DNA of 64,000 nt from a virus (IMGVR_UViG_2928125067_000004:1947-65946); one strand, 5' to 3'. Positions 2,218 through 49,682 are shown, counted from the first letter of the stretch. Translations and numbers: made by a program. Notes: generated by a model from the sequence alone, not told the origin.

Positions 2218-2360
2218 CAGTGTAGTTGCGTTCACGGGATGTAGACGGCGGCGAGGTGCGGCTTAATCCAGCCGCCCTCTGAAACGATGAAAGGCGCCCC
2301 GGCCGAAGCCAGGGCGCCACGTCGAGATGATCGGCGCTCGGCGCGCCTATGTTGCAAAAG

Positions 2361-2966
2361 TCAGCGCCGTGCTGGCGTACGGGCATCCCGCTCCAGCTCG
2401 TCGATCCGGCGCTGCATGCCCTGGATGGTGTCGCGGGGCGTGTTGAGGTCGTAGAGCCCCTGCCGGTTCTGGTCGGATTGGCGCTGCAAATCGGCATCGC
2501 GGGCGCGCTGGGCGGCCCACATCTGCTCGTGCTCGCCGCGCGGGACCAACTGTTTAGTGATCGTGTCGAGGTCGCGCTCGACGCGCTCGACCCGGGCATC
2601 GGTCAGACGCTGGAGATCGTCCCGACGCTGCGACACGACAGCGAAGCGGGTGTCGAGGTCCTGACGCGGCACGTAGGCCTCGGTGCGCGCCTCCACCTTG
2701 GCGATCGCGCCCTCGAGGCGGCCGTTATTTGAATTGACCCACGTGAAGAACATGCCGCCGGCGACCGTGCACACGGCGAGCATGATGTTCACCGGCGCCC
2801 AGTTGATCGAGCTGCGGGTCTTCAGGTCGCTCCGGATGTCCTGCATCACCGAGCGGATGTCGGAGACGGCGGTCTCCAGGATCCCGAGCCGCGTATCCGT
2901 ATCCCGCGGCTGCATCTGCATTTGCTGGGTCTGCTGAAGCTGCTGCGTCATGATCCTGGCCCCCAA
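2361..2966 (-). CDS. Single-TM coiled-coil protein at the end of the lysis cassette (possible holin-like/accessory lysis protein)
   Basis: One hydrophobic segment (WAPVNIMLAVCTVAGGMFFTWV) flanked by heptad-rich regions; position after the spanins. Confidence 0.6.
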   Translation of the reverse strand: MGARIMTQQLQQTQQMQMQPRDTDTRLGILETAVSDIRSVMQDIRSDLKTRSSINWAPVNIMLAVCTVAGGMFFTWVNSNNGRLEGAIAKVEARTEAYVPRQDLDTRFAVVSQRRDDLQRLTDARVERVERDLDTITKQLVPRGEHEQMWAAQRARDADLQRQSDQNRQGLYDLNTPRDTIQGMQRRIDELERDARTPARR

Positions 2967-27695: not shown

Positions 27696-27938
27696 CTACC
27701 AGCCCGAGCGCAGGCAGCCGTCGGCCGAGATCCCGCCCGGGAAGCCGCGATCGTGCGCGACCAGGATCGTCGCCGACTTCTGCGGGTCGAGCCCCAGAGC
27801 CCGTCGGATGATGGCGCGGACACGCAGCATCTCGTCGAGCGAGCGATAGGTCGCCGTCTTGCCCTCGTAGGACACGGACGTGACGCCGGCGGCGATGCCG
27901 GCCTCGATCGCGTCGAGCTGCGCCTGGCTGAAGGCCAT
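27696..27938 (-). CDS. Head-tail joining protein (gpW-like)
   Basis: MAFSQAQLDAIEAGIAAGVTSVSYEGKTATYRSLDEM signature; between terminase and portal. Confidence 0.85.
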   Translation of the reverse strand: MAFSQAQLDAIEAGIAAGVTSVSYEGKTATYRSLDEMLRVRAIIRRALGLDPQKSATILVAHDRGFPGGISADGCLRSGW

Positions 27939-30076
27939 CAGTCTCTCCGGCTCATCCAGCCACCAGGCCGGCCGTGGTTGATGAAGCCCGAGTGCTGCGG
28001 GCGGGCGTAGACCGGCGCCGGCGGCGGCGGAGGTGATGGTGGCGCGACGGGCGCCGGCGGCTCGGCCGCGGCCGCCTCGCCGATCGTCTGCGCTTCGGTG
28101 TCCGGGCCGGGCTCGCCGGTCTCCGGCGCTTCGACCGCCGGCTCCGTGGCGGCCTCCTCGGCTTCGTCGCGCTCCGGCATGCGCCCCAGCGCGACGTACT
28201 TGCCGCTGGAGGCTTGCAGGCCGCACATCGCCACGTAGGCGTAGACGAAGCACACGCCGGCCTCGTGGGCGGCCTTGGGCTTCTCCCATTCGGTGAAGCC
28301 CTGGCGCCGCACCACGAGCTTCTCGCGGGTCAGCTGCTCGAAGTACTCGGCGTCGATCGGCCGAGAGCCGTCGGCCGGCACCATCGGGAAGTGGACGAAC
28401 CGCGGGCCGGGATCGACCAGCGGCAGCGAGCCGTAGGCGAAGTCGCGGGCGGCGTTGCCGCCGACCATGTACCAGGACGAGCCGAGCTTCGTGGACGGCA
28501 GCCGCGGCCACACCTTGGTGCGGGCGCCGCGGGCTTCGGACTTGCCCTTGATCGCCCACACCTTGCGGCGGCGCCGCTCTGTGCAGAACGCGTAAGTCTC
28601 CGAGGTGTGATGGCCGCCGGAGTCGATGGCGGCTGCGCTGATCCGCATCTCGCTGCCGTCGCTGCGCTTGAAGCCGCGCAGCAGCAGGCGGTCGAGATTG
28701 CGCCAGACATCCGGCTCGGCCGGATCGCCCGGGATGACGAAGTGGCCGATCAGCGCGCATTCGAGTCCGGCACCCCAGCCCCAGACCGCGCCCTCGATGC
28801 GCGCGTTGGTGCCCGACTGGACGTCGCCGCCCAGCGTCAGGGTTCGGACGAAGTCGGGAACCTCGGCGCCGTAGGCCTCACGGCGCTCCAGGAAGGAGGT
28901 CGGCTTGATCTCCTGGCCGTAGGTCTGTCGGTAGGGCCGGCCGAGGCGTAGGTTGACGAACGGCTGGACGAGGTTCGCCGGGTCGTCCTGGGCTTCCAGC
29001 CACTCCTGCACGATCACCGGCCACGCGGCGTTCGCGTTGAGCGACATGCCGGTCCAGAGATGGAAGCCGGCGTGCCCGGGCGTCTTCGGCGTCGCGGTCG
29101 CCCGCCACTCGCCGTGGGCGTCCATCCAGGCCTTGCTGCCCTCGTCGATGATGCAGCCGCAGGTGCCCTGGTACCAGACGGACTTGAGCGACCGATCCTC
29201 GTTGAGGTCCCACTTCAGGCCGTGCGGCGTATCCTTGCTGCCCCAGTCCAGATACTGCCAGCCGTCGAGCTCGCCGGCGGTCTCCGAGCACTGCGGGCAG
29301 GGCACGAAGTAGCGCCGCTGGTCCGAGGCCAGCCAGAGCTTCCAGACCCGGCTGGTCTCCTCCAGGAGCGGCGTCGAGCCCCTGACCTGCTTGCGGTTGT
29401 AGAAGGTCTCGCCGCGGGTCCAGAACAGCTTGAGCTTGTCGCCCTGCGTCTTGGCGCCGGGCGTCCAGCCGTCGCCGTCGATCTCGTCGGCGAACAGGAA
29501 CCGCGCGGAGTAGCGCCGGAAGGCGTCGTCGGAGGCTGCGCCGACGACGCGCACGAGGGCGCCGTTCGACAGCTGGTAGAACGTCGCCGAGTCCTGCTTC
29601 TCGCCCTTCCGGACGGGCCGCAGCATCTTGGCGAGCACCGGGGTCTCGCGCAGCATTGGCGCGATCTCGGTGCCGCCGAACTCCTCCGCGTCGTCCTCGA
29701 CCGGCTGCGCCACCGCGCAGAGCGTCGGGTCCTGATGAAGATGGTAGCCGATCGCCAGGGTGGCGAGCCGGGTGTAGCCGACGCGGGCCGCCTTCAGGAC
29801 GGTGACCAGCGGCAGCGTCGGATCGCACATCGCGTCCATGAGGCCGCGCTGGTACCCGTAGAGGGTCACCGGCCCGCTCTCGGAGCCGGTGCTCTTCGGG
29901 ATCCGACCGTGCTCTTCGGCCCACTCTGAGCCGGACATGTGCGGCTTGAAGACGAGGGCCTCGTCGAACAGCCGGTCCAGCTCGGTCCGCGTCGCGTCGC
30001 GGCCAGCCGGGTACTCACCCCGCCGGTGGGTTCCGATCCGCTCCGCCAGCGTCATCGTCGGGGTCACGTCCTGCAA
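27938..30076 (-). CDS. terL: Terminase large subunit (lambda gpA family)
   Basis: LKAARVGYT Walker A, LFADEIDG Walker B, GSTP, YFVPCPQC, LGGDVQ, AAIDSGG; true start may be near 30055. Confidence 0.95.
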   Translation of the reverse strand: MQDVTPTMTLAERIGTHRRGEYPAGRDATRTELDRLFDEALVFKPHMSGSEWAEEHGRIPKSTGSESGPVTLYGYQRGLMDAMCDPTLPLVTVLKAARVGYTRLATLAIGYHLHQDPTLCAVAQPVEDDAEEFGGTEIAPMLRETPVLAKMLRPVRKGEKQDSATFYQLSNGALVRVVGAASDDAFRRYSARFLFADEIDGDGWTPGAKTQGDKLKLFWTRGETFYNRKQVRGSTPLLEETSRVWKLWLASDQRRYFVPCPQCSETAGELDGWQYLDWGSKDTPHGLKWDLNEDRSLKSVWYQGTCGCIIDEGSKAWMDAHGEWRATATPKTPGHAGFHLWTGMSLNANAAWPVIVQEWLEAQDDPANLVQPFVNLRLGRPYRQTYGQEIKPTSFLERREAYGAEVPDFVRTLTLGGDVQSGTNARIEGAVWGWGAGLECALIGHFVIPGDPAEPDVWRNLDRLLLRGFKRSDGSEMRISAAAIDSGGHHTSETYAFCTERRRRKVWAIKGKSEARGARTKVWPRLPSTKLGSSWYMVGGNAARDFAYGSLPLVDPGPRFVHFPMVPADGSRPIDAEYFEQLTREKLVVRRQGFTEWEKPKAAHEAGVCFVYAYVAMCGLQASSGKYVALGRMPERDEAEEAATEPAVEAPETGEPGPDTEAQTIGEAAAAEPPAPVAPPSPPPPPAPVYARPQHSGFINHGRPGGWMSRRD

Positions 30077-30602
30077 ACCACCGCTGCGCGATCTCCTCGC
30101 GGGCGGCCGTGAAGGCTCGGTTCATCTCGGCCTTGGCCATCGCCTCGATCTCGGAGGCGTTGGTCATCGTGGCCGCCCGTCCGGCGACCTTGGAGGCCAT
30201 GTTCGAGAGGCCGGTCCGGAGGACCTGGCAGAAGGTCGCCATATCGGCGACCGCGTCGTGCCGGGAGACGACCGCCTTCAGCGCTTCGTCGGCGCCGATC
30301 TCCGCGACGATGGCGTTGGCGACCGCGCGGCGGCAGTCCGCGTCCTCACGCCGGGCCTTGCTGCTGTCCTTAGGACCGTCGTCGCCGGCGCTCATCGCCA
30401 CGTTCTCGACGGCGCGCTGGATCTTCCAGTCGATCACGGCGGCGGTGTCGAACTGCCACTCGACGCCGTTGCTGCCGCGCTCGACGTAGGGGCAGCCCCT
30501 CTCGATCCAGCTCGTGACCGTGTTGACGCTGACGCCGAAGATCCCGGCGAGGTCGGCTCGGTTCACGAGCCGGCCGTCGATGGCACCAGACATCAACAAC
30601 AA
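30015..30602 (-). CDS. terS: Terminase small subunit (Nu1-like)
   Basis: N-terminal winged HTH VNRADLAGIFGVSVNTVTSWIERGCP...FDTAAVIDW. Confidence 0.9.
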   Translation of the reverse strand: MLLMSGAIDGRLVNRADLAGIFGVSVNTVTSWIERGCPYVERGSNGVEWQFDTAAVIDWKIQRAVENVAMSAGDDGPKDSSKARREDADCRRAVANAIVAEIGADEALKAVVSRHDAVADMATFCQVLRTGLSNMASKVAGRAATMTNASEIEAMAKAEMNRAFTAAREEIAQRWFAGRDPDDDAGGADRNPPAG

Positions 30603-31811: not shown

Positions 31812-32081
31812 TCAGCAGCTCTGCATCGGTTGCGGGACGTCTCGGCTCTGCTGCACGAGGCGCGTGGCCGGCCGCTCGACCGACAGCTCGGCAGCGTTGT
31901 CGAGGACCAGGACGGTGACGTCCCGGACGCCGGCGGCCGCGCACATGCGGATCAGGTCGTCCTGCCAGCGCGCGGCCGTGGCCGGCTGCAGCCTCTGCGA
32001 CGTGCGCAGCACCAGGATGTCGCCGTGACGGACCTCGAGGCGGTCCAGCTGGCGGTCGATCTCTTCGGCCATGGGTCTCAC
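31812..32081 (-). CDS. Hypothetical protein
   Basis: ORF track; tight packing with the recombinase. Confidence 0.5.
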   Translation of the reverse strand: MRPMAEEIDRQLDRLEVRHGDILVLRTSQRLQPATAARWQDDLIRMCAAAGVRDVTVLVLDNAAELSVERPATRLVQQSRDVPQPMQSC

Positions 32082-32926
32082 GCGACTATGGCCTCGTGAT
32101 CGCCCTCGGCGAGCACATGGTTCTCTTCCCCGCTCCAGCGGAACAGGTACTCGACGAGGCCTCGATACTTCGGGTTGTCGGCGATGTAGCCGACGCGGGC
32201 TTGGTGCCAGCGGCCGCCGCTCGGGCCCGGGATGCCTTCGGCGTTGAGGCCGGCGGCGATCTCGGCCTGCGTCCGCTTGCGCCGGCGTTCCTGGAAGATC
32301 CGCCGGACGATGCGCGCCTGCTCGGGCACGATCGCGAGGCCGCCTTCCGGCGTGCGCCGGTAGCCGTAGGGGACGCGTCCGCCCGCGTAGCCGCCCTTGC
32401 TCGCCTTCGTCTGGCGGCCGCCGGCGGTGCGATCGCGGATCGCGAAGCGCTCGCCCTCGGCCATTCCGGCGAGGATGGCGAACAGGGTGCGGCCCATGGG
32501 GGTCGCGGTGTCGATCGGCTCGGTCACCGAGCGGATCATGACGTCGTACTGCTCGGCCAGATCGGACACCGTGGTCACGGCGTACCGGATCTCGCGGGCC
32601 AAGCGGTCGAACTTGTAGACCAGCAGCACCGTGAAGGCGCCGGCCGCGGCCAGCTCCAGCACACGGCCGAAGCCGGGCCGGTCCGCCGGGCGGGTAGCTC
32701 CCGACACGCCGGGATCTCGGGCGACCTCGACGAGCTGATAGCCCTGGCTCTCGGCGAAGGCGCGGACCGCTTTGTCCTGCGTCTCCAGCCCGTGGCCGGT
32801 GGCCGCCTGCTCTTCGGTCGACACCCGCACGTAGGCGACCGCCTTGGTGGCGATCGCGGCGCGGGCGTCGCTCTGGACTTTAGTCCTGGCCTTCAGGCGG
32901 CCGACGCGGCGACTACCCGAAACCAT
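32078..32926 (-). CDS. Serine recombinase (resolvase domain plus recombinase domain)
   Basis: AYVRVST catalytic motif, DPGVSG, DRPG, KFDRLAR, PYGY, GDHEAIV. Confidence 0.92.
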   Translation of the reverse strand: MVSGSRRVGRLKARTKVQSDARAAIATKAVAYVRVSTEEQAATGHGLETQDKAVRAFAESQGYQLVEVARDPGVSGATRPADRPGFGRVLELAAAGAFTVLLVYKFDRLAREIRYAVTTVSDLAEQYDVMIRSVTEPIDTATPMGRTLFAILAGMAEGERFAIRDRTAGGRQTKASKGGYAGGRVPYGYRRTPEGGLAIVPEQARIVRRIFQERRRKRTQAEIAAGLNAEGIPGPSGGRWHQARVGYIADNPKYRGLVEYLFRWSGEENHVLAEGDHEAIVA

Positions 32927-34694: not shown

Positions 34695-34868
34695 GTCAGG
34701 CCACCACGATCACGAGATAGCTCACCCGGGAGTAGTCCCCCGAGGCGTGGGCTCGCAGGCGCTCCGCGCGGCGGCGGAGGCTCGGCGTGCAGGCCGAGCA
34801 GGCGAGTACGGCATCGCACATCGCGACCGTGGCTAGGCACTGACGCAGCGTCATCGGGGCTCTCAACG

Positions 34869-34893
34869 AAAAAGCCCCGCGCGAGGGCGGGGC
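34869..34893 (-). terminator. Intrinsic terminator after the first late ORF
   Basis: Minus strand GCCCCGC-CCTCGC-GCGGGGC-TTTTT. Confidence 0.75.
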
Positions 34894-34918
34894 GTGGGTC
34901 GGTGGATCAGACCGTGCG

Positions 34919-35230
34919 TCAGGCGCGGGCGGCGCGGGCAGCCTTGGTGCGCTCGCGATGGCGCAGGACCGCCGCCGGCACCGGCGGTCGGGGCCGCCGT
35001 TCCGGGCCGGCCGTGCCGCCGGCCTCGTGGCCGGGCCAGCTGCCGGTCAGGTCCCTGTAGAACCGTCTCGCGTGGTCGCGGATCTCGTCGCGGTCGGCGA
35101 CGTAGTCCTCCGGCGTGTGCCGGTGGCCCGGCGCGCGCAGACGGTCCGCCAGGAGGCAGAGGCCGTGGAGGCGCTCGACGATGTCACGTTCGGTCACGGC
35201 CGCGGATCCGTCATCGGGCGACCCTATCAA
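34919..35230 (-). CDS. Hypothetical protein
   Basis: ORF track; DIVERLHGLCLLADRLR...DEIRDHARRFYRDL looks protein-like. Confidence 0.5.
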   Translation of the reverse strand: MIGSPDDGSAAVTERDIVERLHGLCLLADRLRAPGHRHTPEDYVADRDEIRDHARRFYRDLTGSWPGHEAGGTAGPERRPRPPVPAAVLRHRERTKAARAARA

Positions 35231-35259
35231 GGAATGGTCCGCTGTGTCAGCGAATTAGG

Positions 35260-35860
35260 TAGGTGCGGGCCGGGGCTACAGCTTCAACCACCGTCCTGAG
35301 GACGGCTGCGGGTCTTTCGGGCGTCCTGGCTAGCCGGCTTACTGAGATGCCTTTTTCACGCGCTCATGCGCGCCGCACCATTCGTGAAAGGGGGCCGGCA
35401 CTCTCACCCGCCGGCAAGGCGCCCCAATTTACGGCGGGGGAAGCGCGGCCGGATATTCGCCGTCGGCGCGGCGGCCCTTCCGGGCATCGTTGAGGGTGAG
35501 ACGTCGGCCATCACACCCGCAGGACTGACCGCCGAACCGCTGCGAAAGCGGCCCACGGGATGACTGCGGCGATATGATTTCCTCGGTTCTGTCCACTCGG
35601 CCGCCCGTGACGTGCGGCCATATCCCGTGTTTCAGGGATCGCGGGGCATGAACACAACGTGCGGCAAGCTTGTCCGGGGGCACGAAGCGATACCCGAACC
35701 CGGCTTTGTGGAGCCGCTATAGGTCAGACTGTCAGGGTCAGAGCGGGCGAAACCGTCCGCATCAGAGGTCGGTCGCCACGGTGAGATCAGCGCTTCATGG
35801 CTGGTCTCCCCGAAACGGCGACGGCCCCGCGCGGGGGTCCGCCGGGGCCGTCTTAAACTT
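35260..35860 (-). ncRNA. Candidate structured leader/ncRNA (strand uncertain)
   Basis: About 600 nt without a convincing ORF and with at least nine hairpins, directly downstream of the putative promoter. Confidence 0.4.
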
Positions 35861-35871
35861 CTGCGCTGTCC

Positions 35872-35900
35872 ATATGCGTCAAGCGACAAACCGCAGTCAA
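35872..35900 (-). promoter_or_regulatory. Putative sigma70 late promoter
   Basis: Minus strand (C)TTGACT-N17-GCATAT, resembling the rhizobial CTTGAC...CTATAT consensus. Confidence 0.5.
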
Positions 35901-36214
35901 GAGGCCTGTCCTCACCCTGTGAAGCTGAGCTTTTCAGCGACGCGGGCCATTGGCTGCTTGGGGTGGTTTGCCGTCTGTCCGCTTCTGGGATGCAGTTCCA
36001 TAGGAGCGGACATTGGCTTCGTGCTCGCTTACAGCTCCAAGTGGACGACCGAGCCAGCTTGCTACGACGACCAAAGCACTTGGAAAGCGGATGATCGGCG
36101 GCGAGAAACCTACAAGTCCTCGGGTTGAAAAGATTTCCTCATTGGTGCACTGACGCATACGAAGAATTCATGGGAGCGTGAGTTGTGCGAGTCCGAGCTA
36201 GGGCTCAGCCTGTC

Positions 36215-36478
36215 TCAATGATCCCGGCTAACCGCTTCGTTCTCCACGCTAAGCACGCTGGAGTGGCGCTCCTTGGATCCCATCCGCGCATTTGTACTGG
36301 TCCGGTGTGAGCGCCAGTTCTGCACCGTCGTGGCGCGTATGCCGTAGCGCTTGGCAGTGGCCCCTACGCTTTCTTGACGGGCTGGGATTGATTGACGGAT
36401 CGTCTCAGTCGTCGTGCGCCGCCGTAGAGAACCTATTCCACAGCACGCTTCTTCATGCGTCATCAGTTGTGCCACCAC
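36215..36478 (-). pseudogene. IS481-family transposase remnant
   Basis: TTTETIRQSI...ESVGATAKRYGI..TTVQNWR...SSVLSVENEA matches the IS481 N-terminal HTH pattern; truncated. Confidence 0.7.
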
Positions 36479-36508
36479 GCAGCGGGACCGGAAATCTGTT
36501 CCGATCGT

Positions 36509-36739
36509 TCATCGTCCAACCGAATTATTTGAGAGATAGGAACCCACCAGGAAGCCGACTTGAGTGCTAGCGAGGTTAGACACAAGCATCAGAAATGATG
36601 TCACGTCGATTTTCAGCTCGTAGAGGGACCACATTACGTGCGCCGATAGGATCAGAAATGATGCGGCGATTAGAGATCCGATCCTATAGTATCTCCCAAG
36701 GACCGCACCAAGTATCGCGAGTCCAAGTGCCGTAAGCAT
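36509..36739 (-). CDS. Small membrane protein co-transcribed with the HD-GYP gene
   Basis: Hydrophobic 76 aa; start abuts the HD-GYP stop. Confidence 0.65.
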   Translation of the reverse strand: MLTALGLAILGAVLGRYYRIGSLIAASFLILSAHVMWSLYELKIDVTSFLMLVSNLASTQVGFLVGSYLSNNSVGR

Positions 36740-37798
36740 TCATCCTGTCCCGAGGTTTGCCTCGATCGGATCGAAAGCGTTCATGACAGGACGGAAGGCA
36801 TTGAGTAGGTCGACATCTACCCGGCCGACCATCGAGCGTAGGATGCCATGGGCCTGCCTACCAGTCATCGGCGATCGGTATGGACGCCGCTCGATGAGCG
36901 CACCATAGATGTCACAGATCGTCACCAGTCGCACTAGATCCGGGATCTCGGGCGCTCGCAGGCCGTCCGGATAGCCGGACCCGTCTAGCATCTCGTGATG
37001 CGAGCGCACGACCTGCAGTATCTCCGGCGAGAAGCCGCTGTTCCGCAGCATATCGTAGCCGAGCGCTGCGTGTGTGCGCATCACTACCGTCTCCTCCTCT
37101 GTCAGCCGACCGGGCTTGTTGAGAATCGCCAGCGGGATCCGGATCTTGCCAACATCGTGCAGCAGCGCCGCTTTGGTAAGCTGATAGCCGTCCGGGTCGC
37201 GGAACCCCAGCTTGGTCGCAAACGCAGCTGCGAGGCCCGTCACCAGTAGGCAGTGCTGGTGCGTGGCCTCGTCGAAGCGCTGAACGGCGCGGATCCAGTC
37301 GCGAATGCCGGCCTCATGCACTGCGCGAGAGATCAGCACAGTTCCAGCCTCAGCCAACCCGGGGGTGATCGCCCTTCCGGAAAAGAAGTTTTGATTAAAG
37401 AACTGGCGTGCCTCGTCGGCTAGTTTGATCGCGATAGCAGAAGCACCCTGTTTTTGTAAATGATCAATTCTATCCTTCAAGATTTTTAGCATTGATGTAG
37501 CCGGGATGGTTTCGCTCGCACCCAGCAGACGCGCATGGGCTTCGGCCCGCACAGCGTTGCCATGTGTAAGAATTAGGAAGGGCACGCCTACGGCATGCAT
37601 CGGCTCGAGAAGGCGCTGGAAACGGACGATTGCATCTGAGGTAAGCCGCGCCACATCGCCGATAATCAGATCTGGCGTCGCCATAAGACCAGTATCTACA
37701 TATAGATCCTGGACCGTGTATGGCTGATATAGACCGAGAGCGCTCACCAAACGCTCTGTCCGTTGAATTTCGTCGGAAATGAGCAACAATCCGCTCAT
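36740..37798 (-). CDS. HD-GYP phosphodiesterase with a degenerate receiver-like N terminus
   Basis: ALLHDVGK, ILNKPGRLT, HHEMLDGSGYPDGL, TICDIYGAL motifs. Confidence 0.9.
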   Translation of the reverse strand: MSGLLLISDEIQRTERLVSALGLYQPYTVQDLYVDTGLMATPDLIIGDVARLTSDAIVRFQRLLEPMHAVGVPFLILTHGNAVRAEAHARLLGASETIPATSMLKILKDRIDHLQKQGASAIAIKLADEARQFFNQNFFSGRAITPGLAEAGTVLISRAVHEAGIRDWIRAVQRFDEATHQHCLLVTGLAAAFATKLGFRDPDGYQLTKAALLHDVGKIRIPLAILNKPGRLTEEETVVMRTHAALGYDMLRNSGFSPEILQVVRSHHEMLDGSGYPDGLRAPEIPDLVRLVTICDIYGALIERRPYRSPMTGRQAHGILRSMVGRVDVDLLNAFRPVMNAFDPIEANLGTG

Positions 37799-38777
37799 TT
37801 TTTCTCCTGAAGATTTCCTATCGGTCGCTTCATCGGCTTTAAGGTGGAGGAACAGTCAGCAGCCTGATGCACGCTGCTGTGTTCGCTCATTAAATTTTTT
37901 CGTTTATGTCGATAAATTGATCGAGAACGGTCGAATACAGTGGCCAAGCCTCATGGCAAAGTTGGGTGTGCTTTCCGCCGAATTGGATCGCCTTGAAAGC
38001 GCGTCTTTTTCCGAATGGAAAGGCGAAGACAAAACTCCATAAGTATTAATAGCAAACTGTGGTGTAAAGTTATTGATGATTGGCCGCCTGCAATCTGAAA
38101 GTGCACGATCATTCGGCTTTTTGTTCTTGCACACGTCGCGCCTACAACTCTAAATAGTTCTAATTCCAACCGATGTTAGTGAATAATTCGATCGAGCACC
38201 GACGTCAAAATGCAATTATGGCGGTGCGCACCGAACTCAGTCGTATGGTTGATAAAACATAAATAGGCTCGGGATAGACTCGATAAGCGTGCGTTTTAGA
38301 GGCAAAAATCGCTCGCCGATAATAGTATCGCTTGGATAATGGATTAAAACTAGTGATAATTCCTGTGTTGATTAAGTATTCTATCAAACGTTAGCCAGAA
38401 GACTGCCCGCCGCGGACGCGACCTCGGTGGGTCGGCTGACGCTGGCCTGGTAGGCGACCTCAAGACGGACTGACGCTCGGCCGAGAGCAGAACGATGCGT
38501 GGGCGTGCTGGGTGTGTTTGAGCGGGCGAGAGCGGTCACTGGCGATCGTAGCCAGCTGTGCCGCGTCGCTCACATGGAGAGGCGCTCATGCCGTCTGAGC
38601 AACAGCCCAGACCCGCACGTATTATTGTGCGCGTGAATTCTCTATCCGCGTCAGCGCGCTAGAGAGCGGTCCAAACCATTGTGTCTGCTTCTGGGAAACG
38701 TCGATGGCTGCAGGAATGACTGCGTCGGGTCGCAAACAGACTCTCGCAGGCCCGATCCGATCGGAGGTGAAGCCGTC

Positions 38778-39803
38778 TCAGGCCGTGGAGGCCTGGGCGG
38801 CCGGCACAGCCTTCGGCTTACGTGGACTGCTCCTACGACGGTGAGACAGCAGGTAGTTCACGACCTGCTCGACACGCTGCTCGCGCAGGCGCTTGCGGCT
38901 CGACGGGTTGTCGAGGATCCGCTTCGGCTTCGCTGCGTCCGTCTCACCCGCCCAAGGACGCTGCGCGGCCGCCGGCGGCAGCACGGCGATCGACGCGAGC
39001 TTGCCGGAGAGCTCGTGCGCCAACAGGTCGAGCCCCGCCCACCAGGCGGCATACTCGGCCCGCTCGATCAGGATCGACTTCGGATCGTCCCACTCGATCA
39101 CGCAGTAGGCGCCGCGCGGATACCGATCCTTGCCCTCGGCGCCGACCTTCTCCTCCACCAGGTGCGGGCGCAGCCGCCCATCGTCGTCCGCCTTCATCGT
39201 GGAGCGAAGGATCATCACCAGCGGGCGGCCCTGCTTGTCCACAACCGCCGCGGGCTCGGGCGAGGCTGCGAAGGTCGGCCGTGCGCCGAGCCGGGCCCGG
39301 ATCCGCACGACCTCGACGAGCTGCTGCATCGCCCGCGCCATCGGGCCCTGCTGATCCTGGCCAGCAGGGAGATCCGGGGCGAGCCCAAGGTCGCCGTCGA
39401 AGCGATGATCGGCGAAGCGGGACAGCCCGAGGACGGCCGCCTCGACGATCAGCGCGTCGGGGTGCGGCTCGCCCATGGCCGCCGGGAAGCCGGGCTCGCG
39501 GGTGAAGTTCTCGATCCGGCCGCCGTGCTGGGCCATGGCGAACATCGGGCAGACCGAGGGGAACTCGCGCATCCGGAACGACCCGTCGTCCTCGCGCCGC
39601 TTCGGCAGCTCGTCGACGAACGCCCAGCGCAGCACGTCCTCGATGTCCATGACGCGTTTGTTCGGCGTCTCCGGACGGCGCGTGCCGATCGGCGGAGCGT
39701 GGACACGGCTCTGGCGGATGCCGCCCGCATGACGTCCGGGTGAGGAGCGCCGGGCCGGCGCGAAGGCGTGGGTGGTGCTCTGCGACTGCGACGGTGCCGG
39801 CAC
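38778..39803 (-). CDS. Conserved prophage protein at the Q position (candidate late regulator)
   Basis: DIEDVLRWAFVDELPK...PHPDALIVEAAV...AEYAAWWAGL pattern; last early gene before the late promoter; start uncertain (GTG 39803 or ATG near 39650). Confidence 0.65.
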   Translation of the reverse strand: MPAPSQSQSTTHAFAPARRSSPGRHAGGIRQSRVHAPPIGTRRPETPNKRVMDIEDVLRWAFVDELPKRREDDGSFRMREFPSVCPMFAMAQHGGRIENFTREPGFPAAMGEPHPDALIVEAAVLGLSRFADHRFDGDLGLAPDLPAGQDQQGPMARAMQQLVEVVRIRARLGARPTFAASPEPAAVVDKQGRPLVMILRSTMKADDDGRLRPHLVEEKVGAEGKDRYPRGAYCVIEWDDPKSILIERAEYAAWWAGLDLLAHELSGKLASIAVLPPAAAQRPWAGETDAAKPKRILDNPSSRKRLREQRVEQVVNYLLSHRRRSSPRKPKAVPAAQASTA

Positions 39804-39877
39804 GGTGGATCCCCAATGCTGTGCCGGTTCGATACAAAGCGGCAGCACGCGTTGATCCGGTGCCAGTTTTCTCAGTG

Positions 39878-40258
39878 TCAAGATGAATTCAGATCGGCGT
39901 GACTGCGCAGGATCGCCGCGTTGATACCGGCGGCGATCTGCTCGGCCGCTTCGTCCCGGAGCCGGTAGATCGTCGCCGGCGACCCCCAGCCTCGACAGCG
40001 GATGAACTCCTGGAAGCTTTCCTTGGCTGCCCGGCAGCGAGCCCAGGCCAGCAGAACATCGCGCTTGCGTGTCCAAAGCGGGTCGACGAGATCGAGATAG
40101 TCGTTCGGCCACTCGATCGGCCGGATTTCGGCTGGCCCCCGCACGCGTGGGTCCGTGTGCATCGCCCGCTTCATCCAGAGCAGCACATCGCCGCTCGTCC
40201 AGCTGGGGGTGTGGCCGAGGGCGGGGTGAAGCGGTGGACCTTCCTGGCGGAGCGGCAT
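39878..40258 (-). CDS. Hypothetical protein with C-terminal HTH-like helix pair
   Basis: WTSGDVLLWMKRA...GWGSPATIYRLRDEAAEQIA. Confidence 0.55.
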   Translation of the reverse strand: MPLRQEGPPLHPALGHTPSWTSGDVLLWMKRAMHTDPRVRGPAEIRPIEWPNDYLDLVDPLWTRKRDVLLAWARCRAAKESFQEFIRCRGWGSPATIYRLRDEAAEQIAAGINAAILRSHADLNSS

Positions 40259-40697
40259 CTTACGCGACGAGGCGGTCCAGATCGCCGCTCGTCGTTCTTA
40301 GCATGTTCCCTGGTACAGAACCGTGGCAGCTCGGCAATGGTGGGCCTGCGCACTGTCGGATGAAACGTGCTGCAATCTCAGCCTCAAGCCAGACGCTTCT
40401 ATGCCTGCCGGCACACCAACCGCGGGTCCTCGATAGCGATCAAACCATCCAGAAGGCGGATGGTCTCTCGGGCCGTGCGGGCTTTCACGAAACCAGAAGC
40501 ATCGCCGATGTCTCGCAAATTTCAAGGCTTTTGTCGAAGGATTTGCAATAATCAAGCTTGTAAGGCGATAGGGAGAAATCTTTTATGTCCCTGCCGCCAA
40601 GTGTAATTCAAGAGAGAGAGTGCGGATCATAAGCGGTCTTCTCCGTCTCTCTCGTTTTTCGTAACCTAAACTAAGCGCTATTCGTTGAGCCCGCTGC

Positions 40698-42392
40698 CTA
40701 CCGAGGCACCAACTTTGACAGCCAGTCTTCGAGGTAGGCGATGGCTTCCGGTTCGATGTCTCCTGCCCTTTTCCTGATAGCTGTTATCTGGCGAATTGCC
40801 GTTATGACATCTTCGAAAGGGTTATGCCGCATCAGATGAAATGGCACCTCCCACCAGCGACTTACAAGCAAAGCATGGCATATATCGTCGCTGAAACGAC
40901 GTTTGATCTCTCTGGCTGGCTGACCCAATACTATAGAATAAGGACGCACATCTTTCGTAACAATTGCGCCAGCGCCAACTATGGCGCCGTGCCCAACTCG
41001 CACGCCGGCCATTATTACAGCGCCGGCGCCAACCCAAACATCGTTGCCTATATCAGCGCCGGGACACGAAAGTTGCTGGGCGATGCTTGAGAATTGTATG
41101 CTAGTAGTCAGTCCGGCAATTGGATGATCTGATGCTCCGATGGCCGCGTTTCGAGCAATCGAACAAAATCTTCCAACTCTGGTATTGGGATACAAGGTCG
41201 CTCCATTTATTTGTGTGTATGCCCCAACTGTACAATTTGTCTGGATTTCGGCGCCAAATGTGATTTCCACTCCTTCTTCGAAAAAATTATTGTACTTGTC
41301 CAGGCCTGATTGCGGTTTGTATACGGCGGCTAAAGCTTCAAACTTCAGCTCCGTTGAGGCGCTGGGATTGTATGTGGTATCGATCCTGTTGGCTTGATCC
41401 ACGTCGTCCGATGTCTTGGACAGGATATCAAATACAATATGCCCGGACATTTCTTCAATTATTTTCCACTCTGCGTTGAGATCTTCGGAATGGATTTTTG
41501 TTGCTTTTGTTAAAAGCCATCTATGGAGCGGATTGATGTTTGCCGATCCGTAAGCTGTCTGACCAATAATTGAGGCGCTGGCTCTTGCTTCTGAGTGGTC
41601 AGAATATGACACGTCTGCCGTGGTCAGCGTACAAAGTAATAGTTCGTCCGAGTCGGAAATAACATGAATGTCGTCCCAAACACCAAACGCGCGGCCTATG
41701 AAATCGCCATCGACCGTGTCCTTATTTAAATATTCCAAAGCCTGCCTGTTTGTGAGATCGAACGCCAAAGGAAGCAAATGGAAATTGCGGCAAAGCCATC
41801 CGTCAGGAGCGTCCCACATGAGTGCGAACGGTTGAGTAGAGAAGTCATCCGAATTCCAGTGGTACCTCATCCATTCTGGATGGATATTTTCTCTCAGATA
41901 CTCAGCCAATTGTCGGCCAGTGAGCGAAAAAGTTGATTTGTATTTATACTTCAGATCATCAAATGACTTTTCCCGACTTAATCTTGGTCCATTAATCATT
42001 ATGGCGCGTTTGCCGCTGCGGCGAATTTTGGCGATTGTGCTCAAGGCGTTTTCGGAAAACACGCCATCCGGTGGGATAATGATTGCCCACGCCCCTTCCT
42101 GCGACGTTCGCAGCGCGCCCTGGTAGTGAGCTGCCGCCATCGATTGATAGGGATTGTCAGTAATCGATGGATCGAAATCTAAAAATTCTACATTAAAGAA
42201 TGGCAAGTTCTTCTGAAAAGATTCGGCGATGATTTCATTGTTTATTTTTGGCGTGAACACCAAAGCTTTCCAGGTGTATAATTCGATGTCGCCCTTATCT
42301 AAGTTTCCAATACTTAAGCTTGGCAAAGTGATGCTACGTAGACAATCTACATAGTCACTCCCCCATGCCGCAATGATCATGTTGAATTTCAT
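40698..42392 (-). CDS. Fusion: glycosyltransferase-like N domain plus Vat/CatB-type hexapeptide acetyltransferase
   Basis: C-terminal VGRFCSIARNAAIGASDHP...IGNDVWVGAGAVIMAGVRVGHGAIVGAGAIVTKDVRPY; N-terminal AWGSDY...LPSL...GNL; low GC. Confidence 0.75.
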   Translation of the reverse strand: MKFNMIIAAWGSDYVDCLRSITLPSLSIGNLDKGDIELYTWKALVFTPKINNEIIAESFQKNLPFFNVEFLDFDPSITDNPYQSMAAAHYQGALRTSQEGAWAIIIPPDGVFSENALSTIAKIRRSGKRAIMINGPRLSREKSFDDLKYKYKSTFSLTGRQLAEYLRENIHPEWMRYHWNSDDFSTQPFALMWDAPDGWLCRNFHLLPLAFDLTNRQALEYLNKDTVDGDFIGRAFGVWDDIHVISDSDELLLCTLTTADVSYSDHSEARASASIIGQTAYGSANINPLHRWLLTKATKIHSEDLNAEWKIIEEMSGHIVFDILSKTSDDVDQANRIDTTYNPSASTELKFEALAAVYKPQSGLDKYNNFFEEGVEITFGAEIQTNCTVGAYTQINGATLYPNTRVGRFCSIARNAAIGASDHPIAGLTTSIQFSSIAQQLSCPGADIGNDVWVGAGAVIMAGVRVGHGAIVGAGAIVTKDVRPYSIVLGQPAREIKRRFSDDICHALLVSRWWEVPFHLMRHNPFEDVITAIRQITAIRKRAGDIEPEAIAYLEDWLSKLVPR

Positions 42393-42437
42393 TGACTGTC
42401 TTTCAGTTTATCTGACGCCAGACTTGTAACATGAAAT

Positions 42438-42623
42438 TCAAAATCTATTTTTCTTTATCAGGCCGCGAGCATATGCAAAGCTAATTACTTCAGAGTCGGC
42501 TAATTCCCTTCCATCGCCGATCCGCCATAACCTAGGGTCCTGCTCCGATGGTCTAATATCATACCCAGCCTTTTTCAGCGCATTTACTGCATGAAATAAT
42601 ACAATATCACCAGACATACTCAT
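42438..42623 (-). CDS. Small hypothetical protein
   Basis: ORF track; in the low-GC island upstream of the fusion gene. Confidence 0.5.
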   Translation of the reverse strand: MSMSGDIVLFHAVNALKKAGYDIRPSEQDPRLWRIGDGRELADSEVISFAYARGLIKKNRF

Positions 42624-42802
42624 ATTGGGCTCCAGAGCGCAGTGGAGCCATCAGCAAGTCTATCGCGATTGTAAAGTGCGGAAATGCCACATTTGGCAAC
42701 GATAGGTTGTGGCGGTAGTGGCATTACCGTGCTGGGAGGCTGCGGTCCATGTTCTCTAAGGAGCTGCGGGAGCCAGATGGTCTGCGATCCCTGCTTATCG
42801 CG

Positions 42803-43237
42803 CTACTCCGCAGCCTGCCGCGCCGCCTGGGCGCCGGGCACGCCCAGTCCGATCGCCTTCGCGAGTGCCGACCGCTGCGCGGCGTAGTCCGCGGCGACCA
42901 TGGGATAGTCGTCAGGCAGGCCGAAGCGCGCGCGGTAGCTAACCGGCGTCAGCCCATGGGCCGTCAGATGCCGCTTCAGCGTCTTGTACGGCTTGCCGTC
43001 GATGAAGCTGATCAACGCGTCGGGCTTCATCGACTTGCGGATCTCGGTGGCCGTCAGGCGGAAGCCCTCGGGCTGGCCCGCCGCCGCGGTCGACGTCGGC
43101 TCCTGGAGCGCGACTAGGCCGTCGCGGACGGTGCGCATCAGGCCTGGGAGATCGGCTGCCGATACGGCCTGCCGGCTGACGTAGGCCGCCACGATGCCGG
43201 CGGTGAGGCCGAGGAGGTCGTTGGGGGAATCGGACAC
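42803..43237 (-). CDS. mucR: MucR/Ros family regulator (zinc-ligand-substituted variant)
   Basis: LTAGIVAAYVS...ISFIDGKPYKTLKRHL...YRARFGLPDDYPMVAADYAAQRSALAKAIGLG; GTG start with GGAG. Confidence 0.92.
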   Translation of the reverse strand: MSDSPNDLLGLTAGIVAAYVSRQAVSAADLPGLMRTVRDGLVALQEPTSTAAAGQPEGFRLTATEIRKSMKPDALISFIDGKPYKTLKRHLTAHGLTPVSYRARFGLPDDYPMVAADYAAQRSALAKAIGLGVPGAQAARQAAE

Positions 43238-43299: not shown

Positions 43300-44370
43300 T
43301 CAGGCCGCGGCGGTGGCGCCGGGCGGCAGCGCGCTCTCGAAGCGCCAGCCGTCCTGGCCGCCGATCTGGATGGGGGTCATCATCGGCTTGCCGAGGCGCC
43401 GGTAGTGCGCGGCCCAGGCCTCCCACTCGGGCGAACCCTCGCGGACGAACACGCGGCTGGGCAGGCCACCGGGCCCGGCCCCTGACGACGCGAGGGCGAG
43501 CTCGCCGTTGCGCCAGCGGCCGTCCCGCAGCCAGCGATGCAGGGCCTTGGCTTGGCTGCGCAGGCTGGCGCAGGAGGCGGCATAGGCCGCAGCAGTGCGG
43601 ACCGCGGTCTCCTGGTCGGCCGGTGTCAGCTCCCCGAATCGAGCCAGCGCTTCCGATCGACCGGCGGTCAGCCGCCCGCTGATCGGATAGGCCGCCCAGA
43701 GCAGCTCGAATCTGGCGAGCGAGGCCGGCTCCAGCGGCACCGCGGGCGGCGCCACTCCCCGGCAGCCTCGCTCGGCTCGTGGCCGGCGCTCGGTCGATCG
43801 TTCGGGCCGCCGCCCGACCAAGGCCTCCCGTTCGGAGATCCGTTGATCGGTTGAGCGAGTCCCCCCGGCCACGGGGGGATTAAGGGGGGAGAATCCCTTG
43901 GTAGAATCTAGTTCTTGGTAGGCGATCGGGTTGGCCGACTCCGGTTCGACCGACTCCGGTTCAACCGTGCACGGTTCACCCGGAGTCGGCTGATCCGACT
44001 CCGGCACGGGAGTCGGTTTTTCCGCTTCCCGCGGGATACGTGTTTCGGCTGCGTTCTGGTCGTCCGAGCCGAGGTCCGGTTCATCCAGCACGACGTACTC
44101 GAACCCGCCGTAGACCCCGCGCGGCCCGCGCGGCAGCTCGTGGCGCTGGATCCAGCCGACGGCGATCAGCTCGCGCATCAAGCGCTGCATCTTCTCCGGG
44201 CCGCAGCCGAAGCGGCGGCGCAGATGCTCGGTCGAGATGTTCCAGTCGTGGGGGCGCGAGCGCAGGTAGCAGAGCAGCCCAAGCGCATCGAGCTCAAGGC
44301 GTTCGTCGGAGAACACCTCGTTGCCGATGACGGTGAAGTTCTTGTTGTGGCGTCGTCGGATGATCGTCAT
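43300..44370 (-). CDS. Phage replication initiator (HTH N domain, DnaD/O-like C domain)
   Basis: NFTVIGNEVFSDERL...LLCYLRSRPHDW; FELLWAAYP; contains iteron-like repeats. Confidence 0.8.
   Translation of the reverse strand: MTIIRRRHNKNFTVIGNEVFSDERLELDALGLLCYLRSRPHDWNISTEHLRRRFGCGPEKMQRLMRELIAVGWIQRHELPRGPRGVYGGFEYVVLDEPDLGSDDQNAAETRIPREAEKPTPVPESDQPTPGEPCTVEPESVEPESANPIAYQELDSTKGFSPLNPPVAGGTRSTDQRISEREALVGRRPERSTERRPRAERGCRGVAPPAVPLEPASLARFELLWAAYPISGRLTAGRSEALARFGELTPADQETAVRTAAAYAASCASLRSQAKALHRWLRDGRWRNGELALASSGAGPGGLPSRVFVREGSPEWEAWAAHYRRLGKPMMTPIQIGGQDGWRFESALPPGATAAA
43935..44016. promoter_or_regulatory. Putative origin iterons inside the initiator gene
   Basis: CCGACTCCGG at 43935, 43950 and 43995; inverted CCGGAGTCGG at 43980 and GGGAGTCGG at 44008; 15-bp period. 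Confidence 0.7.
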
Positions 44371-44721
44371 GGGCAGGCGCCTTCTCAGGCATGGCTTCAT
44401 CGTCCGGCCGCGAAGCCTGTCCGGCTCCGGGCACGCGAAAACCCGTCGCCGGAATCGCTGCTCGCGAACGGCGGTCGGGTCGGCGGGGCGGTGTGAGACG
44501 CTCGCAACGCGGGCCGAGCCGAAGGCCTCCGCCGAAAAGGACGGCGTCTGGAGGCGGCGGCTCAGGACCTGCGGAAGGCCGGATCTCGTCCGGACCGGGC
44601 GGCATCAGTCGGGCACGAGGCGGGGACCTGACGCAGGGCGCGCGAGGATCTGAAGTCCTGGAGCGGGGGACCGCGGGGCAAGGGCCAGAGCTGCGGGTTC
44701 ATGGCTGAGCGGCTCCGCGCG

Positions 44722-49329: not shown

Positions 49330-49605
49330 TCACGCGGCCGCCCTTCTGCTGTCGGGTGCCCATTCGGGCGAATTACTGCCCGGCATGACGCCGGGGCCGG
49401 AGGCCGAGGTCAGGCCGTCGCCATCGCTCGTCGCCCCCGGCACGACCTTCTCAACGGACTGGCTCGGTACGGCCGTCGCCGTATCCACACCGTCGCCCTG
49501 GTCGCCTCGGGCCGCTCTGTCCGCGCCTTCGCGCGTAGCTCTATCGTCTCCCAAAAGGCGCCGGAGCCCGCAGGCCCCGGCGGAGTCTAGGGAGGAAACG
49601 CCCAC
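49330..49605 (-). CDS. Hypothetical protein
   Basis: GTG start; low complexity. Confidence 0.3.
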   Translation of the reverse strand: MGVSSLDSAGACGLRRLLGDDRATREGADRAARGDQGDGVDTATAVPSQSVEKVVPGATSDGDGLTSASGPGVMPGSNSPEWAPDSRRAAA

Positions 49606-49682
49606 GAGGGGGCTTGCTCGGCCGGCGCTTGCCCATGCACCGGCCGAACCTCGGACGGCCGTCAGCGGCCGGTTCTGTGCGC

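Follow-up and report, generated by a model that had tools for sequence, protein, structure and literature searches.

The put RNAs of phage HK022 (putL and putR) are protein-independent antiterminators that consist of two adjacent stem-loops without a pseudoknot and act only while tethered to the polymerase; to our knowledge, they are confined to HK022-like coliphages. Lambdoid phages possess a late leader with PR', 6S RNA and tR' that is subject to Q antitermination. The tRNA cluster of phage T4 holds the species 1 (rnaC) and species 2 (rnaD) RNAs, non-tRNA RNAs of about 120-140 nt released by tRNA processing, for which we know of no established function. High conservation of unpaired nucleotides and the occurrence of permuted forms are hallmarks of self-cleaving ribozymes. 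Small nested-pseudoknot RNAs beside tRNA genes have been reported as HDV-like/theta ribozymes of phage tRNA regions (PMC10879173), and thousands of unnamed phage candidates have been listed (Fremin et al. 2023, PMC10690425). The locus analysed here almost certainly carries, at 35262-35379 on the minus strand, a copy of a widespread and uncatalogued phage RNA family that is a real structured RNA.

The window, i.e., the whole stretch of 64,000 nucleotides that was analysed, makes up the greater part of a 65.9-kb provirus record of IMG/VR and has about 70 % G+C. It is most closely related to other proviruses and to two Methylobacterium genomes. Along the minus strand, the genes begin with a replication initiator (43300-44400), followed by low-GC cargo genes, a protein with the function-less label phrog_9306 (38778-40112) and an HD-domain cargo gene (36740-37798) directly before a gap at 35230-35900. 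Behind the gap lie a first gene of 92 aa (34919-35197, GC3 0.87), small genes together with a serine-recombinase gene, terS (30015-30602) and terL (27938-30076), and downstream of terL the genes for portal, protease/major head, tape measure and baseplate. The gap, which the first-pass annotation had taken for the leader of a late operon, is thus placed by gene order at the early/late junction, at the head of packaging and morphogenesis genes that extend over roughly 35 kb. The 92-aa gene is kept in all related proviruses, and Pfam and PHROG gave no family for it. Its GUG start is overlapped by the UGA stop of a putative mini-ORF of six codons (M-T-D-P-R-P, 35194-35214, minus strand); the same arrangement with the consensus M-T/P-D-P-R/L-P is present in the homologous loci L008, L009, L010, L013 and L015, and the overlap could serve translational coupling or encode a stalling peptide. 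The sole terminator called by the scanner (34874-34893, minus strand) separates the 92-aa gene from the remaining late operon; the intrinsic terminator as a whole spans 34866-34893 with seven G-C pairs, a loop of six and a U run. The position corresponds to the lambdoid late leader, which also lies at the junction from early/replication to packaging genes and presents a promoter, then a hairpin and a terminator ahead of the late genes. It differs in that phrog_9306 occupies the Q position and in that the leader content is unrelated; a Q-like protein was not identified at the window locus.

Several observations concern the neighbourhood. In relatives, the phrog_9306 gene (4515-5408 in L009) is located directly upstream of the late promoter box, i.e., in the position of lambda Q, and its product is a candidate late regulator. 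Two islands of low G+C content at 36000-38700 and 40000-43000 on the minus strand (46-57 % versus about 71 %), between the replication genes and the late leader, encode the HD-domain protein as well as a hexapeptide-repeat protein of 564 aa. Both islands have the appearance of cargo that was inserted immediately before the late promoter box; in L015, this site is occupied by another gene of low G+C content. The serine recombinase ORF (32078-32926, minus strand) comprises only 282 aa, which align with positions 82-343 of an integrase profile of 651 positions; the ORF may be truncated or frameshifted, and its location inside the late region is odd.

The gap had been described as hairpin-dense and free of reading frames. 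A credible gene is indeed missing from 35230-35900: ORFs reach 85 aa, as expected at 67 % GC, their GC3 bias lacks the signature of real genes, the Pfam search was empty, and homologues differ by indels that are not multiples of three. On these three grounds, a coding sequence in the gap was ruled out. The stems that were checked (35820-35852, 35394-35415, 35474-35485 and 35291-35305) lie where they had been predicted. Their density did not hold up as a property of the region, folding being within chance in comparison to dinucleotide shuffles: on the minus strand, the z-score was -1.26 for the entire leader and +0.16 for its central 430 nt, which reached -2.2 on the plus strand. The conserved motif alone reached z = -0.4 in a folding model without pseudoknot. 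Since the z-scores were not significant, thermodynamic stability was rejected as evidence for an RNA. Of the proposed late promoter, the box TTGACT-N17-GCATAT is present at 35872-35900 on the minus strand (-35 at 35900-35895, -10 at 35877-35872), with a second TTGAC within the spacer; a consensus sigma-70 scanner called no promoter in the leader region, so the support is comparative. Homology among mosaic relatives starts exactly at the -35 element of the box (L004, L009, L010, L013, L015, L070 and L071), and the DNA upstream of it differs. About 10 nt past the presumed transcription start, a 10-bp G+C hairpin with a weak U tract was located (35808-35852, stem 35852-35820, minus strand). Its position is kept in all relatives with changed letters in loop and stem, and the terminator scanner made no call on it; the hairpin would serve either to stabilise the 5' end or as a weak terminator.

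A single leader unit of some 630 nt, as initially suggested, is not what the relatives present. BLAST of the leader and sequence comparison revealed four independently assorting parts: the promoter box with the 5' hairpin, a module termed X, the motif and an insert in L013. The box with its hairpin occurred in every relative compared. Module X is a facultative non-coding insert of about 420 nt (35390-35807) with several locally conserved hairpins; its strand is uncertain, with little covariation detected by alifold on either strand and two G-U substitutions pointing to the minus strand. It is present in the window, L003, L070, L071 and L072 and partly in L008, and missing in L004, L009, L010, L013 and L015. 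Outside the motif, the leader thus consists of this facultative module, which is of weak standing, the promoter box and the 5' hairpin. Related proviruses with the motif are the window, L003, L004, L008, L009, L010, L015, L038 and L048. Promoter, hairpin, module X and first gene are kept in L070, L071 and L072, which have no motif; in L070 and L071 module X runs directly into the first gene, thus the motif is not needed for the operon as such. L013 has at 2240-2440 another GC-rich insert of about 170 nt, enclosed by the same outer helix (GGUGCGG ... CCGCAUC) and containing GAAAGUCGCAGACCCGCAG. Model R1 of the motif family gave no match to this insert, which may represent a divergent or expanded variant of the motif. 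Between motif and first gene, a small hairpin (35240-35252, minus strand) is also found in the relatives with changed letters. Among 151 genomes sampled from the Methylobacterium family, the motif occurred in only 2, which fits a sporadic, prophage-borne element.

A structured non-coding RNA is present in the gap, as the first-pass annotation had proposed, and it comprises 118 nt where covariation supports it instead of about 630 nt. It is encoded on the minus strand and is predicted to share its transcript with the late genes. Covariance model R1, which was built from the family alignment, matched it with 81.8 bits (E 5e-16) at 35264-35366 over the full model length, the only match in the window. 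The outer helix P1 pairs 35379-35373 with 35268-35262 and is followed by the hairpin P1a (35372-35359); helix A is formed by 35352-35346 with 35325-35319, helix B by 35338-35334 with 35273-35269 and helix B' by CAG/CUG. The invariant joiner GAAAGACCC occupies 35318-35310, hairpin C 35306-35290 and the second invariant joiner GGUUGAAGCUG 35289-35279. The window copy has helices A, B, B' and C in the family order together with both joiners, and all helices can form. The expectation that no known family would be recognised proved right: in the region 34700-36800, Rfam 15 at E <= 10 yielded chance matches only (14-19 bits), and on 38 homologous loci the Rfam search found only tRNA, one tmRNA and one group I intron. 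As judged from sequence searches, the family is new to the catalogues, being absent from Rfam 15. A literature search with motif strings and keywords found no description of it, and it might be among the candidates of Fremin et al. 2023 (PMC10690425).

The lead to the family was a distant BLAST match of the gap to a site without annotation in the tRNA clusters of six jumbo phages of Brevundimonas, where two hairpins were altered by compensatory substitutions; the seemingly 'empty' gaps of these clusters contain the predicted motif. Pattern scans based on the two invariant joiners yielded 16 true copies in IMG/VR and 31 in metagenomes, and further copies came from cultured Rhizobium, Klebsiella, Erwinia and Proteus phages. 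Together with the two Methylobacterium genomes, about 50 distinct copies were obtained from IMG/VR, metagenomes and isolated phages. The carrier loci span 24 % to 70 % G+C and belong to T4-like, T5-like, rV5-like and phiCbK-like phages as well as temperate phages. The fold is self-contained within about 100-120 nt and combines an H-type pseudoknot, hairpin C and usually an outer closing helix; it is a pseudoknot because helices A and B (B/B') interleave. From 5' to 3', P1 is followed by an optional hairpin, GAAMA, the 5' strand of A, NYAGUA, the 5' strand of B, AAAC, CAG and the 3' strand of A; the second half consists of GAAAGACCCRCA, hairpin C, GGUUGAAG, CUG, UUAG, the 3' strand of B and the 3' strand of P1. 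About 45 unpaired nucleotides are near-invariant in the family. P1 has 7-21 bp and is present in about half of the copies, and hairpin C ends in a GNRA loop in 16 of 36 distinct hairpins. In two copies (L037 and L042), helix B is set off from the AGUA joiner by some 14 additional nucleotides, which marks another point that permits insertion. A covariation check on 42 sequences showed that three helices covary, with 88.6 % of the cells paired versus 66.6 % in shuffled and 29-41 % in slid controls. Changes on both sides were observed in 167 cells versus 51 expected, and the covariation score was 0.603, a value reached in none of 500 shuffles, versus 0.191. Helix B formed at least 6 bp in 78 % of the cognate pairings versus 6 % of the non-cognate ones, and CAG/CUG is changed to GAG/CUC in Rhizobium phage RHEph12 and in permuted forms. 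G-U pairs had been thought to favour the plus strand; for the motif, 18 of the 42 sequences present G-U at one pair on the minus strand, which assigns the motif to the minus strand.

The motif resides in a variety of carriers. It fills the gap between two tRNA genes in the tRNA arrays of Erwinia phage Hena1 and Proteus phage Stubb, and in L077, L080 and L081 it begins within about 10 nt of a tRNA 3' end. Spacers between motif and tRNA within arrays measure only 2-10 nt. A tRNA gene within 500 nt was found at only 8 of 45 loci, in all eight on the same strand, thus the link to tRNA biology is partial. Eight copies, the enterobacterial ones and five more, are circularly permuted: their ends lie in hairpin C, which now forms the closing stem, helix B is capped by a loop, and both stems covary among the eight. 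Locus L079 presents a -10 box, then the permuted motif, then a closing stem with a U run, and looks like a complete stand-alone small RNA gene. In Klebsiella phage VLCpiM5b, a group I intron (RF00028, 69.8 bits) lies between two 'DNA polymerase' ORFs, and the permuted motif forms an insert of 83 nt in its P6. This unannotated intron (2361-2665 in L065; ON602729.1, 28514-28818) is the reason why the DNA polymerase is annotated as two CDS. A standard copy (R1 94 bits) was located inside the tmRNA (RF00023, 93.9 bits, with a tag peptide found by ARAGORN) of metagenome contig L062, exactly in the PK2 position, directly after the tag reading frame and helix 5. The tmRNA has 415 nt (2307-2721, minus strand) on a low-GC contig of 3.9 kb with no smpB in view; the neighbours, a helicase and a glucosaminidase, are phage-like, and the tmRNA is probably phage-encoded. 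The motif opens the packaging operon in three temperate lineages whose terminases are unrelated: the window group, L022 (integrase, motif, phrog_2421, terS, terL) and L027 (motif, terS, terL). An all-against-all BLAST of the flanking ORFs found phrog_2421 as the only recurrent neighbour, at four loci, and a recurrent neighbouring protein was discarded as a clue to function. The small proteins downstream of the motif in the window and in the Brevundimonas phages are unrelated, thus a common downstream gene was also rejected. The phrog_2421 product is an 80-aa three-helix membrane protein; its gene adjoins the motif at 9028-9267 in L022, 1793-2029 in L051, 1346-1609 in L064 and 1462-1716 in L041, Pfam gave no match, and this could represent a holin-like gene with which the late operon begins.

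Comparison with described RNAs yielded partial likenesses. With the HK022 put RNAs, the window locus shares a short structured RNA that is part of the operon transcript itself and is encoded between a phage promoter, which it follows closely, and terminators. In contrast to the two adjacent stem-loops of put, which was compared by its description, the motif has helix A crossing helix B, hairpin C and an outer helix; moreover, copies exist as free sRNA genes or within other RNAs, and sister prophages dispense with the motif. The strand order A5', B5', A3', hairpin, B3' equals P3 5', P7 5', P3 3', P8, P7 3' of the group I intron core (RF00028), and as in the P3-P7-P8 region, the 3' strand of A follows helix B' without a spacer and the joiners flanking the hairpin are conserved. 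However, the motif has neither P4-P6, P1 and P2 nor splice sites, and in VLCpiM5b it does not form the core, being inserted peripherally in P6. A search with RF00028 gave no match in the window, where only 6 nt are found at the place of P4-P6, while the same search detected the Klebsiella intron; the resemblance is topological and does not imply membership. An H-type pseudoknot is shared with PK2-PK4 of tmRNA (RF00023), and in L062 the motif takes the place of PK2, whereas the window contains no tmRNA or tRNA-like part. A tmRNA or tRNA fragment, suggested by the match to the Brevundimonas tRNA clusters, was rejected after searches with ARAGORN and RF01849 in window, provirus and phage gap: for the one-piece and the alphaproteobacterial two-piece form, ARAGORN found none in the window and RF01849 none in the whole provirus record. 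The E. coli ssrA gene gave no match to model R1 and was dismissed as a relative. Like rnaC and rnaD of T4, the motif can be a non-tRNA RNA inside a phage tRNA cluster; sequence or motif similarity to these RNAs was not found, model R1 had no match in the T4 region, and the identity was rejected. The HDV-like/theta ribozymes also are small knotted RNAs next to phage tRNA genes, but the motif has only 7 nt between B5' and A3', which leaves no room for P3/L3/P1.1, and models of the HDV family gave no match. A relationship to RNase P was discarded, as the strand order misfits P2/P4 and no CR-I box was present in any locus examined. The 9-mer GAAAGACCC is presumably identical to 23S rRNA 2057-2065, which was treated as a coincidence.

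The distribution of the motif leads us to a tentative reading, held at somewhat less than even confidence, of a portable RNA domain that docks one conserved cellular partner. The loops are indifferent to base composition, the motif exists as free genes, tolerates permutation, has been grafted into other RNAs and is dispensable; these properties argue for a self-contained domain with a conserved partner. The invariant loops would bind one highly conserved cellular partner, and the fold would carry this interaction to any RNA that contains it, whether a small RNA on its own in lytic phages, a tmRNA, an intron or a late transcript. An RNase P cut at the next tRNA, just 3' of the motif, would be expected to release it from tRNA arrays; in the prophage of the window it may also be cut out of the late transcript. 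Located within the 5' leader of the late operon, the motif would therefore be made whenever the late promoter fires, and the late leader would be one more vehicle ensuring its expression. As partner, we favour the machinery of translation and tRNA processing or an enzyme of RNA decay over RNA polymerase. Close relatives of the window prophage lack the motif, from which we infer an accessory 'RNA moron' rather than an obligatory control element of the late operon. More generally, the many phage lineages may share the portable knot as a universal adaptor for recruiting or blocking one conserved host machine (the ribosome, RNA polymerase/Rho or an RNase), or as a new class of ribozyme, a proposal that we regard as possible and rather doubtful.

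That three unrelated temperate lineages carry the motif at the start of their packaging operon fits a cis-regulatory role as well as it fits docking. An antiterminator or anti-Rho leader that acts processively in cis in the manner of HK022 put is an unlikely alternative: the nascent knot would bind the polymerase or block Rho, and late transcription would pass 34874-34893 and long untranslated stretches. It is a possible reading of the window locus because a strong terminator follows the first gene, so that the motif lies between the late promoter box and an intrinsic terminator. Likewise, L022 and L027 have the motif just upstream of terS and terL, in L027 with a hairpin and U run in between; the other homes (tRNA arrays, intron and tmRNA gene) are untranslated stretches exposed to polarity, and the motif was always on the strand of its neighbours (8 of 8 tRNA cases). 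Sister prophages with the same promoter and first gene go without it, however, and cleavage by RNase P 2-10 nt downstream in tRNA arrays would be expected to untether the RNA from the polymerase. Neither the positions inside tmRNA and a group I intron nor L079 with its resemblance to a complete sRNA gene from promoter to terminator agree well with a tethered leader, and a pseudoknot plus hairpin is not the two-hairpin architecture of put. The same placement just upstream of terS, together with a tRNA 3' fragment adjoining the motif in L027 that is typical of attachment sites, could indicate a site acting as DNA, i.e., a pac/cos site, an attachment site or an operator. This is hardly credible for a motif in which compensatory changes keep the pairing, the G-U of 18/42 sequences at one pair occurs on one strand only, and copies reside in tmRNA, an intron and the tRNA arrays of lytic phages.

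The roughly 45 unpaired nucleotides that are near-invariant and surround a pseudoknot and covarying helices, the natural circular permutation and the scattered contexts including tRNA arrays, known from hammerhead, twister and theta ribozymes, are also traits of a self-cleaving or otherwise catalytic small RNA, a new class of ribozyme that would process phage transcripts. We consider this improbable, since no known ribozyme model matched at permissive thresholds, cleavage inside the tmRNA and the intron would destroy the carrier, and cleavage is unnecessary for a stand-alone gene that has a promoter and a terminator of its own. The outer helix closes the fold like that of an aptamer, and some loci would allow a riboswitch in which a universal metabolite or second messenger gates transcription or translation of the next gene: the Shine-Dalgarno sequence of the next gene sits in the 3' strand of helix B in L022, the start codon follows directly after the helix in L030, and the small membrane protein phrog_2421 is encoded directly downstream at three loci. 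Yet the other downstream genes (terS, uvsX-like recombinase, zinc-ribbon proteins and tRNAs) are unrelated, an expression platform is missing from the copies that are permuted, embedded in a tmRNA or flanked by tRNAs, and no alternative pairing is conserved. The motif loci thus present neither a consistent class of downstream gene nor a conserved platform, and a riboswitch appears very improbable.

The conservation of some 45 invariant nucleotides within a 100-nt fold from 24 % to 70 % GC is of a kind that nearly always points to a ligand, a partner or catalysis. Nature seldom reuses one RNA domain as a module, and here such a domain occurs free, permuted, in tmRNA and in a group I intron; the varied carriers are built-in controls for finding what the motif binds. 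The cultured carriers, phages of Klebsiella, Erwinia, Proteus, Rhizobium and Brevundimonas as well as Methylobacterium lysogens, are directly testable. A universal adaptor or a new ribozyme class would, if true, be a previously unrecognised layer of phage-host RNA biology. For annotation, the motif explains recurrent 'empty' gaps in phage tRNA arrays and has revealed an unannotated intron that makes the DNA polymerase of one phage look split. In the whole window, Rfam 15 at gathering thresholds matched only mmgR/suhB (RF00519, 41.8 bits, barely above threshold) at 49544-49618 on the minus strand. We take mmgR to be a chromosomal sRNA of Alphaproteobacteria; its presence in the provirus record reflects either included host DNA or a prophage-borne copy.
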